Origin: an uncultured delta proteobacterium
Lineage (GTDB): Bacteria; Desulfobacterota; Binatia; UBA9968
Assembly: GCA_963760795.1 (NCBI GenBank)
Contig: CAVXEP010000001.1
Location: 96,001-160,000, forward strand
DNA: 64,000 bases
Direction of reading: 5' to 3'
A model generated the notes under the pieces. It made no database searches, had not been told where the DNA came from, and saw only the letters and a list, made by a program, of their open reading frames with translations. Positions within the stretch are counted from its first letter, which is position 1. Every line of letters starts with the position of its first letter. The position numbers and the translations under genes are program-made. Below, in pieces: positions 10,690 through 18,798 of this stretch.

Positions 10690-10966
10690 GACGATATTGC
10701 TTCTGGTGATGGTACTTATTCATATCATCGGCGAATGTCAAGAAAGGGGGCTCTTCCGCTGATCGCAGTGATATTCAGTTCACCGCGCCTTGGATAGTCC
10801 GCTTTCCCACGTTGTCATCTTTTAGCTAAGGATTGCAACGAATCTTCCCAGCATTTTTATTACGTCTTTTGTTTCGCCGCTTGGCGGAGCGCCAGCAGTG
10901 TCCAGGCTGATGGCCATCGACTTTAATACCGATTGATCTTTGTATAAACAAAATCGTTAGCCACGC

Positions 10967-10993
10967 AAAAAAAGCCGGGAGACTGCTCCGGCC
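10967..10993 (-). terminator. rho-independent terminator after the grdB-like gene
   Basis: GGCCGGAG-CAGT-CTCCCGGC hairpin followed by T7 on the - strand, just after the stop at 11007. Confidence 0.8.
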
Positions 10994-11006: not shown

Positions 11007-12311
11007 TCAAACTTCGGTCGGTTTGTCAGCTTTGCTCTCCAACGACGCCAGCGCTTTTTCCATCAATGCGATGCGCCAGCGCCGTTCTTCCTCGGCGGGC
11101 AGCTCCGGCTGGCCGACCGGATAATGAAACTTATTGCCGCCGACGATTCTGCCGACGCCAACTTGCGCGGCGACGTTGGCCAGGCAGGTGATGAGCACCA
11201 CCGGGATTCCTTGTTTCTCAATTTCTTTTGCGATCGTAGCGCCGCTACGCGTGCCGGTGCCTCAGGTCGCGGTCAAGATGACGGCGTTCACACCGGAGTT
11301 CGCCAGTTCCCCGGCGATGCCGGCGCCGAGCTCAGCCATCTTGCTCGGCATCGCGCCGGTGCCGGTGGTGACGAAATAGCGCTCGTGAAGTTTTTTGAAG
11401 CGTTGGTTCTTCTCCAGCTGGCGCATCGCATCCAGCGGCACAATGCGGTCGGGATCTTCATCCACCATCGAGGTGTCGTAGCCAGTATGCATCGCTGCGA
11501 ATTCGCCGCACTTCAAATCGTCCAGCCCGGCCAGCGAATATTTGAAATAACGTGAGCCGCGCGAGCTTTCGAGCCGATCCGGATTACCCTTGGGCACGAG
11601 ACCGCCTTCGGTGACGAGAGCCACCGTGGCGTCTTTCAAGCTGCCGGTTAGATTGGGAATCATGTGCCGCGCGGTTGTGATGAGCGGGATCTCGCTTTCG
11701 TAGGTTTCGCCGTTAAGCTTGGCGAGCATGAGATCGACGGCGCGGACATAATCCGGCTTGGCGGTTCTGACGGTGAAGCGGCGTGGAATCGGCAAGCAAT
11801 GCTCGGCGCGGAAGGCTTCCGCGCCGGCTGGGTCTTGCGCTATTAACAGTTCGACCAGCGCTGAAAAGCGTTTTGCCGCCTCCGCCATGGACGCCGTGGA
11901 GGCGCCGGTTTGCACGACGAATACTTGGCGGCCGATCTCCTGTGTGCCCGGATTGTTTTCATGCATGCCGGTGATTGCCGGAATACGCCAGTTGTCGCGC
12001 ACCCAGCTGCACGCCTTGGCGCAGGCGATACCGTAGCGGCCGGCGTTGAAGGCTGGGCCGGCCAGGAAGAAATCGGGCTGAAACCGGTCGATGGCGGCGC
12101 GCATCGATTGCAGTGCTTGCTCTTCTTGTTCATGAAAGTAGTTGTCGCCGCAGGCCAGCGTTGCATACTCGACGCCGCGCTGCTGGAAACTCCTTTCGAT
12201 TTCAACTCCGATACCGACCGCCTGCGGCAAAAATATAACTTCCTGCCCGGCCTTCTCTTCGCCGCCGATGCCGGCGAAGAACTGATTCAAATAATGGAGC
12301 ACTTTGATCAT
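11007..12311 (-). CDS. grdB: glycine/sarcosine/betaine reductase selenoprotein B family (Sec at TGA 11262-11264), 434 aa
   Basis: HYLNQFFAGIGGEEKA, CGDNYF, GPAFNAGRYG and VPKGNPD motifs. After ILTAT-TGA the same frame continues GTGTRSGATIAKEIEKQGIPVV... to the stop at 11007. Confidence 0.9.
11235..11264 (-). promoter_or_regulatory. in-frame UGA plus bacterial SECIS-like hairpin
   Basis: TGA, 12 nt, then CGTAGC-GGC-GCTACG perfect stem with a G-first loop 18 nt after the UGA. Confidence 0.7.
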
Positions 12312-12322
12312 GTCGTTCCTCT

Positions 12323-13612
12323 CTAGTTTTCATAGACCGCGCGAAAGCCGCTCATGCCCATTTTGCTGTAGGAACCGAAGAAAATCGTCGGGTCGAAGAG
12401 AAAAGGTTCACGCGCGTCATGGCGCGCTTTCAAGTGGAGGTCGATCTCAGGCCCGCCGATGACACTTTCCAGTGGTGGAATATAAATCTTCTCCGAAACA
12501 TTACCGCGGCTGATCATGCCATCGGCCTCTGCCGGATGATCGACCAGCGGCCGCTCGTAGCCCTTGGGTCCGTTGGATTCATGCAACACCGCGGCGGTCT
12601 TGATGCCTTCATCTTCGCATGCTTTCACGGTTTGCATGAAATCGACGGTGCCGTTGCCGGTGCCTTCCATGAAAGCCAGCGCGCCGTCGGCGCCCAAATT
12701 TTTTGCCAGCCGCGCCACCCACAGGCCCATTTTCTTTTTCTGCTCGAAGCTGTCGTTATAACCGCGCGAAAGAATCACACCGCGAAAGTTTATGCCCCTG
12801 CCGTGGCGGTTGAGCAATTCCCATATAAACGGATTGTCGCAATGCAGCGACGTCGGCACCTTGCGTTCGCTCTTAAAGTTGCCGCTGACCAGCGCGCCGT
12901 CGAAAAATTCCGCCGGATGGACGAATGTCGGCAGCGTCCGTGAGATTTCTTCGCCATAGTAAAATGTCCGGGCGCAGCGCACTTGGCTTTGTACTTGGTA
13001 GATCAAGACGACTTTGGGCAGACTCGCGTCTGACCGCAGTGAGCGCAATCCTGTGGCGCTGCGGGCGCGGCGTGGTGCTTTTCCGCTTGCGGCAATAAAG
13101 CGCGCGCAGCGCAGCGCCATGAGCCGGAGCGCTTGATCGAAGCCGGCATTGGAGACCGACGCATCGGCAGTTAGCGATAGCACCAGATGAAAACAATCCG
13201 AGCCGTAGGAGTATGGGGCGCCGACGCCGGTCATGTCGAGAATCCCCTCGCGCTGTTTCTCGATGGGAGTCAATTCGTCGAAATGAGGGAAGCGGCCGGC
13301 GACGGTGATGAGCAGGTTGCGAATTCGCACTGTCTGTCCCGTTCCCACGAGAGCTGCGGGACCGTCGAATCCCGGAAAAGTCGAGCCGCCACCGGAGAGT
13401 TTGGCGATCGGCAGGACCGTGTCGAGCACATGGACGATGCGCTTGGCTTCGCCGGGACGAGCGAGTTCGAAATCAACCCCGATGCCGTGACTAAGGTCGT
13501 CGATTTGCTTTTCAAGCTCGGCCCGGCAGAGCGAGAGGGCGGCGCCGTCAAGCCGCGTGCGCTCGCCCCATCCGAGATCTCCGATTGAATAATCGAGCAG
13601 TTCCAGTTCCAT
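12323..13612 (-). CDS. glycine/sarcosine/betaine reductase component B proprotein (GrdE/GrdI-like), 429 aa
   Basis: MELEL start, LARPGE..RI, FPGF, REGILDMTG.GA.YS, TFYYG, HPAEFFDGALVSGN, HG..INF.GVI, EG.GN..VD and GNVSE motifs; directly upstream of grdB. Confidence 0.85.
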   Translation of the reverse strand: MELELLDYSIGDLGWGERTRLDGAALSLCRAELEKQIDDLSHGIGVDFELARPGEAKRIVHVLDTVLPIAKLSGGGSTFPGFDGPAALVGTGQTVRIRNLLITVAGRFPHFDELTPIEKQREGILDMTGVGAPYSYGSDCFHLVLSLTADASVSNAGFDQALRLMALRCARFIAASGKAPRRARSATGLRSLRSDASLPKVVLIYQVQSQVRCARTFYYGEEISRTLPTFVHPAEFFDGALVSGNFKSERKVPTSLHCDNPFIWELLNRHGRGINFRGVILSRGYNDSFEQKKKMGLWVARLAKNLGADGALAFMEGTGNGTVDFMQTVKACEDEGIKTAAVLHESNGPKGYERPLVDHPAEADGMISRGNVSEKIYIPPLESVIGGPEIDLHLKARHDAREPFLFDPTIFFGSYSKMGMSGFRAVYEN

Positions 13613-13725: not shown

Positions 13726-15048
13726 TTAAAATCGCGCGTCGACCCATTTCGCCACGTAGTCGAAAAAGTTTTTCACCGAATTGGAATATTGCCCCTTGGT
13801 TTTCTCGCACTCCGTGCATGGCGTGATGCCGTGGGTGGCGCCTTCGATGGTGATGAAGTCCTTATCCTTGCTCCTGGCGACCTCGTAGTGGATCTCATTG
13901 TCGCGGATAAAGTAATGGCCGCCCATGGCGCCGAAGAGGACCGGCACGGAAATCTGTTGCAGGGCGCAGACGGTGGAGTTGTTGCTCGAGCAATGGTCGA
14001 TGCCGTCGAGCGAATTGGTCGCGCGCACGGCATTGGCGCTCAAGAACGAGCGCACGGTGAGAAACAGCGTGCCGCCGTCGAAGGTAGAGTTCTGCTTGGC
14101 AATATCGGGCACGGCTACGCGCACACTGTCGAGCATGCAGCAATCGTCGATACTGCCGTCGTTTTTGAGCAGCCGGCGCGGCGCGCTGGTGCTGCGCAGA
14201 ATGCTCAGGTCGAGCTGAAAGAGTTTGGCGGCGTCACCGCGGGGCACGATGAACGGCGCGTCGTCTTTCGGGTTTGCACTCGCTTCGATGCGGCGGAGTT
14301 TTTCCACTGCCAAGTCGATCAGCCGGTTCATGCGCTTGGCCTGTCCCTCGAAGTAGGTTTTTTTGAACGCCTCAGAATAGTGCGATGGACCGTTGGGGTT
14401 GTAGCCGTTCTTGGCATCGAAGGGGTCCAACTTCGGGTCGATCTTGGGCGCTTTGTTTTCGTTGATCATCGCGGCGTCGTTGATGACCGCGGGATTTAGA
14501 TTTCTCACCCCGGCGATGACCGGATTGCCTGGGTGGGCATCGCGAAAAATAATCCCGTCCGCCGGCGGCAATCCGGCGAGCTCGTTGCCGCACTTCAAAA
14601 TTCGCTGCGGCGCCTGGCAGTAGGCGACGCCGTTTTCGGCGACGGCTTGATAAAAACTCATGGTCGGCCCGCCGCCGCTGCCGCCGAGCAGCAAGACTTT
14701 GGCGATGCCGGCTTGCTTGCGCAGGAAGTTGACGCCGGATTTCACATCGAGAGCGATCTGGTCCCACTTCACCATGGCTTCGTTGTTGTCCGAGCGCGGA
14801 TTTAAGCACAGCACCATGTAGCCGCGCTTGGCGAGTTCAGTGCATGCAAGACTGCCCATAACGTTGCCAGTGCGATGCACGACCAAGATGCCCACCCGGG
14901 CGGCCGGCAATGGCGGATCGGGTTTGTACAGCGCGCCTTTTACCGCGGGTGGCGCGAACTGGATGTAGGTCGGATTACTTTGCGCGTGGGCGCGCTGAAC
15001 GGCGACAGACGCGATGAGTGTGAAAAAAATCATTTGAAACCGGCGCAT
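13726..15048 (-). CDS. secreted alpha/beta-hydrolase-fold protein
   Basis: Signal peptide ending AHA; LLGGSGGG nucleophile elbow; C-terminal EGATHG; several Cys pairs. Confidence 0.7.
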   Translation of the reverse strand: MRRFQMIFFTLIASVAVQRAHAQSNPTYIQFAPPAVKGALYKPDPPLPAARVGILVVHRTGNVMGSLACTELAKRGYMVLCLNPRSDNNEAMVKWDQIALDVKSGVNFLRKQAGIAKVLLLGGSGGGPTMSFYQAVAENGVAYCQAPQRILKCGNELAGLPPADGIIFRDAHPGNPVIAGVRNLNPAVINDAAMINENKAPKIDPKLDPFDAKNGYNPNGPSHYSEAFKKTYFEGQAKRMNRLIDLAVEKLRRIEASANPKDDAPFIVPRGDAAKLFQLDLSILRSTSAPRRLLKNDGSIDDCCMLDSVRVAVPDIAKQNSTFDGGTLFLTVRSFLSANAVRATNSLDGIDHCSSNNSTVCALQQISVPVLFGAMGGHYFIRDNEIHYEVARSKDKDFITIEGATHGITPCTECEKTKGQYSNSVKNFFDYVAKWVDARF

Positions 15049-15210
15049 GTTCACTTCCTTCCTGTGGTTGGTGCGGTCAACTTAGATGGAAACAGGAATC
15101 GGAACAAGAAAAATTTTGCGTATGCGCACAGCGAGGCAACGGCTGCTTGCTCAGTAATCTTGCTGCAGCCGGAGTATGAGTACCCTCTTAGCAAAATTCA
15201 GGGGAAAAAT

Positions 15211-15268
15211 GGAGCGCGGGCTTTCTAGCCCGCGTTGCTGATTTTGCGGACAGGGATGTCCGCGCTCC
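15211..15268. repeat. REP-like palindrome (GGAG-type)
   Basis: GGAGCGCGGGC..GCCCGCG and GCGGACA..TGTCCGCGCTCC inverted units. Confidence 0.6.
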
Positions 15269-15336: not shown

Positions 15337-16821
15337 TTACTGCTCCGGCGATGCCGGGAAAATCAAAGACTTGATGACCACCGGCACGGCGCCGGAGGAT
15401 TGAATGAGCGCGCCGACATCGATGAAGTCGAAGTCGCTAAGCGCAATGCCGTCGATGGAGATGATCGCGCTGTCCAACTTCAGCTCTTCCTGGCAGTGCA
15501 GGCCGATGATGCCGCCGATGTCGCCGTCGTTGACCAAAACCAGCGGATGGCCTTTGGCGAGAATGTCTTTGAGACCTTCGGCCACGCCGCTGCAAAACGC
15601 TTGCAGCCGCGCGAAGGTCGCTGAGCCTTCCCAATGAAATGCTACGGCGACCGGCTGGCGGCCGTGCAGCATATCGAGGCGCCGCAGCGCGCTGAGCAAT
15701 CCGTCGCGCACGGCATCCTTGGTGAATTCTTCCTGACCCAGCGGGAACTCGGGCGCAACCACGGCGATGTTGCGCACCGGCACGGCGTCGTCAGGCATGA
15801 TGAAGATGGTGTTGCCGCTCACTTGCACGGTGTATTGAGACGCGCCGATGACGGTGGCGCGGATGCGCGCGTTGGGTTCCATCATCAGCAGGCCCAAGTT
15901 GCCGGCGCGTTTGTGCACTTCCTCGGCGATCAGCGGCCCCAGGTCGCCAAAGCTGGTCTTGGCGCGACTGTAAATAAATTCCGAGACGCCGCCGGAAAAC
16001 ATCACGCAATCGATCTCGCCGGTGTAGCTTAGCGGCGGCATGCGCAACAAGCTCTTGAAACCGTCGTCGATGGCCGATGGTTTCAACATGGCGAACAGCT
16101 TGTCGACCATGCCGGAGACCATTTTGCGTAAATTCTCTTCGGGAATTTTCTCGCCCATGGCCACCGAGAAGCCGGCCCAGCCAGCATGCTTGCGGGCGGC
16201 TTCTTCGATGCGCACGATGACACCGTCTTTGTCGAAGGCGAGCAGGCGGGCGCCGATGTCGATGGCCGATACTTCCTGGACTTTACCGTTGTTGCAGATC
16301 GCGAACTTGCTGGTGCCGCCGCCGATGTCGATGTTCAAAACTACGCCACCCATTTTCGCCGAGTGGGCTACCGCGCCCGAACCATGGGCAGCCATGGTCG
16401 CCTCAAGGCCGTCGCCGGCGCTGACCGCGACGAACTTACCGGCTTCCTGGGCGAACAGCTCGCCGATGGCGCGGGCATTGCGCCGACGCACGGCAACGCC
16501 GGTGAGGATCAATGCGCCGGTGTCGACCTGTTCGCGGCTAATTTTCGCGATCTTATATTGGTCGTTGATGAACTTGCCCAATGCTTCGACATCGATTCTC
16601 GTGTCATCGACGTAGGGCGTCAGGAGGATTTGCGATTCATTTATAACCTCGCGCTTGGTCACCCGGTAGCGCGACCCTTCGAGGGTCAGTTCGAGGCGAG
16701 AGAAAACCAGATGGGAGGTCGACGATCCAATGTCGACGCCGACGCTGGTGAGCCGTAGGTTTTCTTCATCCTGCATGTGGCGGTTGGCATTGGAAAACGA
16801 ACCTCTAGGTGCGGTGGCCAT
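15337..16821 (-). CDS. EutA-like (reactivating factor family) ASKHA ATPase
   Basis: SVGVDIGSSTSHLVFSRL, ILLTPY, DTGALILTG, NIDIGGGT, FSGGV and IRATVIGASQYT..VSG.TI motifs. Confidence 0.85.
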   Translation of the reverse strand: MATAPRGSFSNANRHMQDEENLRLTSVGVDIGSSTSHLVFSRLELTLEGSRYRVTKREVINESQILLTPYVDDTRIDVEALGKFINDQYKIAKISREQVDTGALILTGVAVRRRNARAIGELFAQEAGKFVAVSAGDGLEATMAAHGSGAVAHSAKMGGVVLNIDIGGGTSKFAICNNGKVQEVSAIDIGARLLAFDKDGVIVRIEEAARKHAGWAGFSVAMGEKIPEENLRKMVSGMVDKLFAMLKPSAIDDGFKSLLRMPPLSYTGEIDCVMFSGGVSEFIYSRAKTSFGDLGPLIAEEVHKRAGNLGLLMMEPNARIRATVIGASQYTVQVSGNTIFIMPDDAVPVRNIAVVAPEFPLGQEEFTKDAVRDGLLSALRRLDMLHGRQPVAVAFHWEGSATFARLQAFCSGVAEGLKDILAKGHPLVLVNDGDIGGIIGLHCQEELKLDSAIISIDGIALSDFDFIDVGALIQSSGAVPVVIKSLIFPASPEQ

Positions 16822-16917
16822 GGAAATCCTTACGGGTTTAAATTGGTTCGGCGTCGAGAGTCTAGAGTCTGGCGTCAAGCCAAACCCTAGACCCCAGGCG
16901 CTGGATGCGAGACGAAT

Positions 16918-18114
16918 TTAGTAAGAGTTCTTGTAAAGATCGGGTTCCATGCGCGATTTGGCGCCGACCTTTTCGAGGGTTTCCTCGAATTCTTTACGCA
17001 GGTACGGATCTTCTTCGTTGTACGGGATCGCGGTGCCGCCGTCTTTCAAGTCGATGGCGCCGTAGTCGATGCCCTTTTCGCCGGGCTTGCCGCGATCGCG
17101 CCCAGGCGCGTTGGGACCGAACCAGGCCGTGAGACGCAGCGGCTCTTTGCTGGCGCCAAAGTGAGCGTGGAACCAATTGCCGCTCATCGGCGCGGCGCTG
17201 ACCATGCCCACCGGTTCATAGTCCTGTCGTCTAATTTTTTCCGTCGTGCCTTTTTCCCAGGGGTGCATGCCTAATTCTGACGGCCAGGTGTAGGTATATC
17301 CTTTGCCGCTGAGGCAAATTAGCACGGCGGCGGAGCCATGCGCATGCGCCTTCGAGTAACGGCCGGTTTCATGCTGGCCGATCCACATGTAGAATTGCTG
17401 GCCAGCCATGTGCGGCTCGATACGCCGGTAACCCGGCGAGCGCCGGTTATCCATCGGCAATTCGCAGGACATCACGTCGGGAATGATGTTGGTCTGGCGC
17501 ATGGCGAGACCGCGCAGCGGATCGGGTGTCACTTCTTCTTTGTACTTGTAATAATCGTCGCTCGGATCGAAACGATCTTTGAAGTGATAGGGGCAATTGA
17601 AAATAAAATCGTCGTTGCCGAAATTATTCATAACGTTCGGCGCCGTGGTGCCGCCCAATAAGAGCGCCGGGCTGGAAGTCGCGTTAACAATTCGGTGGGT
17701 CGCGTTCATTGGAATGGCAAACATCGAACCTTTTTGCCACTCGAAGGTGATCTTCTTCGGATTGCCGTCGATCCACACTTCCGTGGTGCCGCGGCCGTCG
17801 ACGACGAGGTATTGTTCTTCGTACAAATGCTTTTCGGGATTCAACGCGCCGGCGCCGGGAACCTCAACAACGTAGCAGCCCCACAAACCTTCGGTGCCCA
17901 GTAGCTGAATAAAGGTGCCGTTGCCGCCCATGCGTTTCCACGGCTTGCGCGGCAAATCCTGTACGCGGCGCACGCCGATGTCACGATAGATCGGAATACC
18001 CTGCGACTCCATGTAGTTGTCGTAAGGCGTGTTTGGCCGGAGAAATTTTCCATAGCCTGCCCGGGTCTTATTATCCGTCGGTTCCTGAAATGCTTGCTCA
18101 GCGGGATGATCCAT
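16918..18114 (-). CDS. bicupin protein
   Basis: Two cupin motifs (PEKHLYEE...GRG / PMNATH and YSKAHAH...GKGY / WFHAHF); AAGGAGG RBS. Confidence 0.8.
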   Translation of the reverse strand: MDHPAEQAFQEPTDNKTRAGYGKFLRPNTPYDNYMESQGIPIYRDIGVRRVQDLPRKPWKRMGGNGTFIQLLGTEGLWGCYVVEVPGAGALNPEKHLYEEQYLVVDGRGTTEVWIDGNPKKITFEWQKGSMFAIPMNATHRIVNATSSPALLLGGTTAPNVMNNFGNDDFIFNCPYHFKDRFDPSDDYYKYKEEVTPDPLRGLAMRQTNIIPDVMSCELPMDNRRSPGYRRIEPHMAGQQFYMWIGQHETGRYSKAHAHGSAAVLICLSGKGYTYTWPSELGMHPWEKGTTEKIRRQDYEPVGMVSAAPMSGNWFHAHFGASKEPLRLTAWFGPNAPGRDRGKPGEKGIDYGAIDLKDGGTAIPYNEEDPYLRKEFEETLEKVGAKSRMEPDLYKNSY

Positions 18115-18340: not shown

Positions 18341-18559
18341 TTAGGCCGAGTCAGTTTGTACGATACCTGGCAACTTACTCAGCGTAAGCTTTTTGAGATC
18401 TACTTTTAGGCTGGCATTGTCGATGTCTATCCCTACCAAATTGCCCGCGCTGTCGTAGTCGAGAACGACGCCTTCCGAAATCTCTCGGCTTTCGGTACTT
18501 GGGCGCTCCGAGAGATCGATATACAGCGAGTCCGTATCGGCGTAGTAGTTGAGTTTCAT
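18341..18559 (-). CDS. DUF2283 family protein (putative antitoxin)
   Basis: MKLNYYADTDSLYIDL...GVVLDYD..GNLVGIDI pattern; ATGA overlap with the upstream ORF. Confidence 0.8.
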   Translation of the reverse strand: MKLNYYADTDSLYIDLSERPSTESREISEGVVLDYDSAGNLVGIDIDNASLKVDLKKLTLSKLPGIVQTDSA

Positions 18560-18798
18560 GGTTTAAATCCTCGATCCGGAAAAGCGTTGTGAATAGTGAC
18601 CTTGTCCTCTAAAGTGATGACTCTCAGAACTCTTCCCTCTAGCTCGTCGATTCTACCCCAAAACCGATAACGGTTCATCTCCTGAGGTTCACTTCTTAAC
18701 GGCCCCTCTACAACTCGTATGCACCATTCCTTTTTCAAATACGAACGCTTGCGTAGAACCTCTCTCTCGAAATATTCCGTGAAGAGGTATTGCACCAC
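18556..18798 (-). CDS. small putative RelE/DUF4258-like toxin
   Basis: 80 aa, RYRFWG...LRVITLED..TIHNAFPDR; coupled to DUF2283; lower GC. Confidence 0.6.
   Translation of the reverse strand: MVQYLFTEYFEREVLRKRSYLKKEWCIRVVEGPLRSEPQEMNRYRFWGRIDELEGRVLRVITLEDKVTIHNAFPDRGFKP

Follow-up and report, generated by a model that had tools for sequence, protein, structure and literature searches.

A predicted non-pyruvoyl, CxxC-less 'protein B' module of the glycine reductase type in an uncultured soil bacterium of the Binatia

The gene pair and the processing site of its GrdE-like protein

Enzymes of the glycine-reductase type are textbook examples of selenoenzymes and are known from anaerobes that ferment amino acids. 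A pair of genes related to the substrate-specific 'protein B' subunits of these enzymes was examined in a 64,000-nt stretch of DNA (i.e. the window; positions 96,001 to 160,000 of contig CAVXEP010000001.1, assembly GCA_963760795.1) from an uncultured delta proteobacterium of the class Binatia. The window belongs to contig C1 of a genome with a completeness of 88.9%. The pair consists of a GrdE-like gene (i.e. the target) and, directly downstream, a GrdB-like gene with a selenocysteine (Sec) codon; these genes and their associated signals are arranged as follows.

12323..13612, - strand: non-selenoprotein 'protein B' subunit of the GrdE/GrdI/FarE type, 429 aa (PF09338)
12312..12322, - strand: spacer of 11 nt separating the E-like stop codon from the B-like start codon, i.e. 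tight coupling (from the gene coordinates)
11007..12311, - strand: GrdB-type selenoprotein subunit, 434 aa plus stop (PF07355, TIGR01918), with Sec350
11235..11249, - strand: hairpin CGUAGC-GGC-GCUACG resembling a selenocysteine insertion sequence (SECIS) element (from frozen synonymous sites and folds)
10966..10993, - strand: intrinsic-terminator-like hairpin with U7, at the end of the two-gene unit (from folding)

The protein encoded by 12323-13612 matched PF09338 with 306.4 bits (gathering threshold 22.2) over residues 1-389, and a start at 13612 was consistent with 428-aa homologues spanning 100% of the query. The GrdB-like protein scored 361 bits with PF07355 and 371 bits with TIGR01918 (cut-off 65). 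The E-then-B gene order was retained in those related loci that were long enough to include the B-like gene, and the conservation of both genes in 80 metagenome loci ruled out a pseudogene or an artefact and indicated that selection acts on the pair. A sequence search of the PDB with both proteins gave no match at E <= 0.01. A preliminary description of the window, made from the sequence alone, had placed a terminator after the pair at 10967-10993; this was confirmed, with a hairpin (10973-10993) and a run of seven U (10966-10972) coming directly after the stop codon of the GrdB-like gene. The fold had an energy of -19 kcal/mol (z = -1.91), with 9 of 200 shuffles equally good. The hairpin was absent from the list of a consensus terminator scanner, which likely missed it because of a one-base bulge in the stem.

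The translation of 12323-13612 (- strand) contains FFDGALVSGNFKSERKVPTSLHC, in which the SGNF motif begins at residue 243 and the Phe is residue 246. Reference sequences for GrdE were obtained from Acetoanaerobium noterae and an Acidaminobacteraceae metagenome-assembled genome (MAG), both defined by their operons, together with a GrdE-like protein of [Clostridium] symbiosum, whilst those for GrdG were from two annotated grdG-grdF pairs on the megaplasmid of Peptoclostridium acidaminophilum. The A. noterae cluster (i.e. grdX-trxB-trxA-grdE-grdA-grdB-grdC-grdD) was labelled by gene order and size, with GrdD being confirmed by its model. The reference GrdH proteins of A. noterae and Hespellia stercorisuis scored 806 and 842 bits with NF040795 (cut-off 775) and, as both pass this betaine equivalog, the gene directly upstream of each was taken to encode GrdI.

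At the aligned site, GrdE and GrdG read SGN-C-VSACDK or SGN-C-VAPCDK, GrdI reads SGS-F-MP and the target reads SGN-F(246)-KSE-RK, with both cysteines gone. In C. difficile GrdE the pyruvoyl peptide comprises residues 242-266 (PMC9908766), and residue 242 agrees with the aligned processing position. Amongst 121 orthologue sequences (74-100% identity, target included) the site was occupied by Tyr in 91 and by Phe in 30; none had a Cys, indicating that this is a fixed trait and not due to chance. The preliminary description was therefore correct that the GrdE-like protein lacks the processing cysteines, F246 having replaced the Asn-Cys site of GrdE/GrdG, and its statement that GrdI is not processed at this site agrees with the Phe found in the same column of the reference GrdI.

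The wider family was sampled with a HMMER scan of 1.84 billion cluster representatives, which produced 813 members at E <= 1e-3 (50%-identity clusters). From the best 150 of these 813, 133 were kept (330-800 aa) and 17 fragments were dropped. When combined with 12 reference and own-genome sequences, the resulting 145 rows had Y (68), F (22), C (13), L (8) or H (6) at the site, with other residues being fewer. Since five of the 13 Cys rows were references, Cys was present in just 8 of the 133 nearest representatives; Tyr was present in 67. Seven of 92 scanned representatives reached 412-631 bits with the GrdG model (NF040793), and all seven had Cys at the site. Loss of the Cys is a common state in this family, not a rarity, and is less unusual than the preliminary description had assumed.

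Selenocysteine decoding and family placement

An in-frame UGA at 11262-11264 forms codon 350 of the GrdB-like gene, and U350 aligns with the Sec of GrdB, GrdH and GrdF. The surrounding motif is TAT-U-GTG-TRS-GAT as compared to ST-U-GTC-TRC-GAT in these three proteins; the partner thus lacks UxxCxxC (U-GTG-TRS being invariant in orthologues) and has an Ala where STUG has its Ser. The GrdB-like alignment reached residue 349 in 53 related loci, and in all 52 of these with downstream sequence a TGA was followed by GTGTRSGAT. In 29 distinct orthologues the frame remained open beyond the UGA, giving proteins of 429-436 aa. Codons +5 to +9 were almost frozen across 44 distinct orthologues (CGT 44/44, AGC 44/44, GGC 41/44, GCT 44/44 and ACG 43/44), as compared to four codons for each of the invariant residues elsewhere in these proteins. 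The SECIS-like hairpin starts 12 nt past the UGA and was present in both the minimum free energy and the centroid folds. As the fold energy of this region alone was not significant (z = 0.35), the evidence for the hairpin is the freeze of synonymous sites. The genome encodes tRNA-Sec and SelB (410 bits, cut-off 242). Clade-specific invariant cysteines were observed in both proteins. In the E-like protein this is C258, a position at which 120 of 121 orthologues, 9 of 17 rows of the surrounding clade (target included) and 14 of the 145 family rows have Cys, whilst the B-like protein has C172 and C376; judging by these sequence patterns, the three cysteines may replace the lost thiols.

Comparisons with NCBIfam equivalogs placed both proteins below every cut-off. 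The E-like protein scored 196.8 bits with GrdG (cut-off 780) and 100 bits with FarE (NF053623, cut-off 675), whilst the B-like protein scored 378 bits with GrdF, 360.5 with GrdH (NF040795), 331 with GrdB and 87.9 with PrdB (TIGR04483), for which the cut-offs are 800, 775, 602 and 300, respectively. No NCBIfam match besides GrdG at E <= 1e-120, and no FarE equivalog, was found in the 92 of 133 representatives that were scanned. A midpoint-rooted FastTree phylogeny of the 145 rows was generated, for which the supports are local only. GrdE/GrdG and GrdI were sisters within an 18-row clade (100% local support) and the target was in a different clade of 17 rows (99% local support), with Y (13), F (3) or H (1) at the site. 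The preliminary description had raised clustering with characterised GrdI as a possible outcome of such a tree; this was not found, the target being outside both the GrdI and the GrdE/G clades. The orthologue group was also isolated in the 50%-identity library, with one full-length cluster at 76% identity and the next at 41-42%. The missed cut-offs and the separate clade indicate that the pair constitutes a separate subfamily from GrdHI, FarEB and GrdEB. On sequence evidence, the pair is a non-pyruvoyl, CxxC-less 'protein B' module of a new subfamily that is widespread in soil.

A GrdA-GrdC core and the proposed function

A single GrdA was detected in the genome on another contig (C13:157087-157515; 172 bits, and 180 bits with NF040748, cut-off 130), with one TGA in a canonical C-x-x-U motif, and a single GrdC was encoded directly upstream of grdA (NF040746, 537-539 bits, cut-off 450). 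A family search for GrdD across the whole genome (88.9% complete) gave a best match of 24.5 bits as compared to a cut-off of 350. The absence of grdA, grdC and grdD from the 64-kb window, as noted in the preliminary description, was upheld, as the only GrdA and GrdC matches were on C13 and none for GrdD exceeded the cut-off; a complete grdACD set elsewhere, an outcome it had weighed against its own interpretation, was found in part, with grdA and grdC on C13 but no grdD. The grdC-grdA unit was syntenic in about 35 related MAG loci without a GrdD-like neighbour. This two-gene operon spans C13:157087-159122 (locus L018:9067-11108), and its neighbours were a macro-domain gene, HAD phosphatases, an NMT1-like binding protein and an SthA-type transhydrogenase.

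Co-occurrence was assessed in 121 genomes of the window genome's class. Full-length GrdB-like genes were present in 12 genomes, of which 11 had GrdA, and GrdC was detected in exactly the same 11 genomes as GrdA. The other 109 class genomes gave no convincing GrdA, the only match being a partial one of 22 bits that lacked a TGA. The 12 genomes with GrdB-like genes contained two to six GrdB-like matches each as compared to one GrdA. Five further relatives, reached via their GrdA, had five to eight GrdE-like matches each, and the target orthologue was present in three of these five. Neither the 121 class genomes nor the five relatives yielded a GrdD, whilst the same model detected all five of the Firmicutes grd-operon controls.

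The window's genome contained five GrdB-like and about seven GrdE-like loci, with at least four E/B-like pairs besides the target. All four intact E-like paralogues lacked the processing Cys, and all three intact B-like paralogues had Sec. At least three of the further pairs were intact with Sec (C13:10175-12584, C20:123960-126339 and C4:118580-123733), and an extra E-like gene was present on C4. The motifs after the Sec of these paralogues were U-GTS-TRS (C13 and C20) and U-GTC-SRS (C4). GrdB-like and GrdE-like genes at C4:155454-157977 and C7:96546-97725 were split across frames and are either pseudogenes or assembly errors.

With moderate confidence, we propose that the pair encodes the substrate-specific 'protein B' subunits of a glycine-reductase-type selenoenzyme system and feeds a shared GrdA-GrdC core that operates without GrdD. 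The sequences show that the E-like subunit is not a self-cleaving proprotein, with an aromatic residue (F246; Tyr in most orthologues) at the pyruvoyl-forming Cys site; substrate binding would accordingly not involve a Schiff base. By the chemistry of the family, Sec350 would attack the alpha-carbon of a substrate X-CH2-COO-, whose leaving group X would need no imine activation (i.e. a quaternary ammonium, sulfonium, halide or similar group), and expulsion of X would produce a carboxymethyl selenoether on Sec350. As there is no Cys beside the Sec, this intermediate would not be resolved inside the pair and, as suggested by gene presence and co-occurrence, would pass to the single selenoprotein GrdA. 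The genome would have at least five such protein-B modules, interchangeable with one another, the pair being one of them. Because the lineage is without GrdD, the acetyl unit would probably exit GrdC other than as canonical acetyl phosphate, with hydrolysis or transfer to CoA as speculative candidates. Canonical acetyl-phosphate formation is doubtful, and the doubt cast by the preliminary description on a Stickland-type formation of acetyl phosphate gains support from the distribution of GrdD.

A substrate that needs no Schiff base, also put forward in the preliminary description, is reasonable by analogy with GrdI, which has Phe at the site, and with FarE, the fluoroacetate reductase subunit of Cloacibacillus porcorum MFA1 (PMC10838667). 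According to that report, FarE lacks the two processing cysteines and FarB lacks the CxxC after Sec; its authors predict that FarE/FarB supply GrdA and protein C, both of them shared, with a carboxymethyl selenoether (PMC10838667). By this description FarE/FarB resemble the target in being a two-gene module of the GrdE/GrdB families with the same double loss of Cys (PMC10838667). They differ in that the target is far below the FarE cut-off, that the window has neither a farA-type MFS antiporter nor a farC radical-SAM gene and that the host of FarE/FarB is a Synergistota fermenter with grdABCDEX, whereas that of the target is an uncultured soil MAG without GrdD. GrdE/GrdB and GrdG/GrdF share the protein families and the homologous Sec position with the target, whose genome also has GrdA and GrdC, but the target lacks the Asn-Cys site, UxxCxxC and GrdD. 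The target genes are also not clustered with grdA, trxA, trxB and grdX, unlike those of the canonical cluster in A. noterae (locus L104).

Several observations weigh against supply of a GrdA-GrdC core by the pair. The pair and grdA-grdC are on different contigs (C1 and C13, respectively), and one genome, G236 (95% complete, 80 contigs), had three full-length GrdB-like matches and no match to GrdA or GrdC. The genomes with co-occurrence are kin, from about four families, so that the co-occurrence of GrdA and GrdC is not statistically independent and is suggestive. By analogy with D-proline reductase, C258, C172 and C376 could resolve the selenoether internally. Gene context was considered as a guide to the substrate and was found to be weak, the neighbouring families being hugely expanded in the genome.

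A stand-alone two-component selenoenzyme, as envisaged in the preliminary description, would resemble PrdAB in using an internal thiol and an external reductant without GrdA or GrdC. PrdA/PrdB, like the pair, form a two-protein selenoenzyme of the same superfamily, and Prd works without GrdA; the cassette is self-contained with its own terminator and has neighbours that vary across 85 loci, the nearest 64 kb contain no grdA or grdC, the three invariant cysteines could be resolving thiols, and G236 has GrdB-like genes with no GrdA match. This proposal is, however, at odds with the presence of both GrdA and GrdC in the window's own genome, with their presence in all but one of the 12 class genomes that have a full-length GrdB-like gene, with the lack of a convincing GrdA in the other 109 and with the finding that the orthologue-bearing genomes G001, G004 and G005 (reached via their GrdA) and G211 all have GrdA. 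PrdA differs in being a pyruvoyl proprotein and PrdB in having UxxC. The B-like protein reached just 88 bits with the PrdB equivalog (cut-off 300). We consider a stand-alone enzyme to be rather unlikely, and this part of the preliminary description was not sustained.

It is very unlikely that the pair is a GrdI/GrdH orthologue releasing trimethylamine from glycine betaine, as the tree places GrdI with GrdE/G (18 rows, 100%) and the target in the other clade (17 rows, 99%), the GrdH equivalog gave 360 bits as compared to 775, the UxxCxxC kept in GrdH (U-GTC-TRC) is gone in the partner of the target (U-GTG-TRS) and no BCCT or OpuD-type transporter was present among the annotated recurring neighbours. 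The likeness to GrdI/GrdH is nonetheless real, with an unprocessed partner having Phe at the pyruvoyl Cys site in an SG(N/S)-F context, the same sizes, gene order and Sec position, and a best tblastn place for the target in A. noterae that is the GrdI gene (32.8% identity). Processing of a proprotein at another residue, either Cys258, which is 12 residues downstream, or a Ser, with formation of a carbonyl being retained, would fit the near-invariance of C258 in orthologues and its scarcity in the family. The context of C258 is, however, His-Cys and not Asn-Cys, the literature examined contained no precedent and the partner lacks the Ser of STUG, which is proposed as a second carbonyl site in the report on FarE/FarB (PMC10838667), making this alternative highly improbable.

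Our preferred interpretation, in which the pair supplies a shared GrdA-GrdC core, can be extended tentatively to a modular selenoenzyme system of soil bacteria, and this wider proposal is possible rather than probable. One GrdA-GrdC core without GrdD would serve several paralogous protein-B modules that lack the pyruvoyl site and UxxCxxC, with each module acting as a reductive C-X lyase on an alpha-substituted acetate of its own. Release of the acetyl unit would be as acetyl-CoA or acetate rather than acetyl phosphate, and the chemistry would serve the assimilation or detoxification of compounds in soil and not Stickland fermentation. The pair in the window would be the most widespread and conserved of these modules. 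The hosts considered are uncultured soil MAGs labelled Binatia or Deltaproteobacteria with five to eight GrdE-like matches per genome, and the candidate acetates would be betaines and sulfonio-, halo-, sulfo- and phosphono-acetates.

Distribution, gene context and significance

Orthologues formed at least 120 clusters at 74-90% identity and were found in the 80 metagenome loci at 64-90% identity, with source names including MAGs labelled Candidatus Binatia, Limnocylindria, Deltaproteobacteria and Pseudolabrys. An orthologue was present in two of the 121 class genomes, both of one genus, and in one of 151 genomes of a phylum sample, i.e. the window's own genome. DNA runs containing the stretch mostly carried soil metagenome labels. 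Both genes were partly represented, at 90-99% identity, by contigs from four RNA libraries (soil, rhizosphere and estuary; three studies), and a contig of 314 nt bridged the UGA. These contigs are weak evidence, indicating presence only and not proving transcription, as carry-over of DNA is possible.

Three genes lie upstream of the pair in the window.

13726-15054, - strand: secreted-looking alpha/beta hydrolase
15337-16878, - strand: EutA-like ATPase
16918-18114, - strand: bicupin, 398 aa

The hydrolase-like protein (442 aa) has a signal-peptide-like N-terminus and a weak alpha/beta-hydrolase match (17.5 bits). A bidirectional terminator-like hairpin was detected at 15213-15236, between the hydrolase and EutA-like genes, and the latter gene probably forms a transcription unit of its own with the bicupin gene. 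The EutA-like protein is a reactivase-family ATPase (PF06277, 384 bits) with no adjoining ethanolamine ammonia-lyase genes. In the closest relative (L123) the same EutA-like and bicupin genes precede the pair, but the gene immediately upstream of the pair encodes a GNAT acetyltransferase instead of the hydrolase. Two overlapping small open reading frames (72 and 80 aa) at 18341-18798 (- strand) are located in a low-GC patch (0.50 as compared to about 0.58) and may be a toxin-antitoxin-like pair.

Across the 85 loci the two-gene cassette was the sole conserved unit, with the flanking genes varying between sub-branches. Recurring neighbours encoded PhnS-like binding proteins (26 loci), NMT1/SsuA-like binding proteins (22), ABC permeases and an ATPase (13, 6 and 9), Amidohydro_2 proteins (10), a B12-binding radical-SAM protein (15) and a bicupin (7, including 16918-18114); their NCBIfam matches were all far below the cut-offs. 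As tblastn gave 75 PhnS/PotD-like, 92 NMT1/SsuA-like and 30 bicupin matches (segments, E <= 1e-20) in the genome, these binding-protein and bicupin families are expanded and their adjacency to the pair may be background. In its 15 loci the radical-SAM gene (581 aa) was divergently upstream of the pair, frequently accompanied by a PhnS-like ABC transporter, and all mappable examples were in the sub-branch at 64-66% identity (loci L172-L198). The published far operon also includes a radical-SAM gene, farC (PMC10838667). A tblastn search of the window's genome with the B12-binding radical-SAM gene gave no match.

Known substrates of this type of enzyme are, to our knowledge, just a handful (i.e. 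glycine, sarcosine, betaine, D-proline and fluoroacetate). No Binatia/Binatota paper was among the 15 of 59 literature matches listed for this group together with reductases of glycine, betaine or sarcosine, and no literature was found that was read as describing the soil branch of the target. The double loss of Cys is itself already published for FarE/FarB (PMC10838667). The branch described here is large and highly conserved in soil and lacks three hallmarks of the mechanism, i.e. the pyruvoyl site, UxxCxxC and GrdD. Identification of its substrate would widen the known chemistry of selenocysteine and would help to explain why soil bacteria retain the costly Sec machinery.

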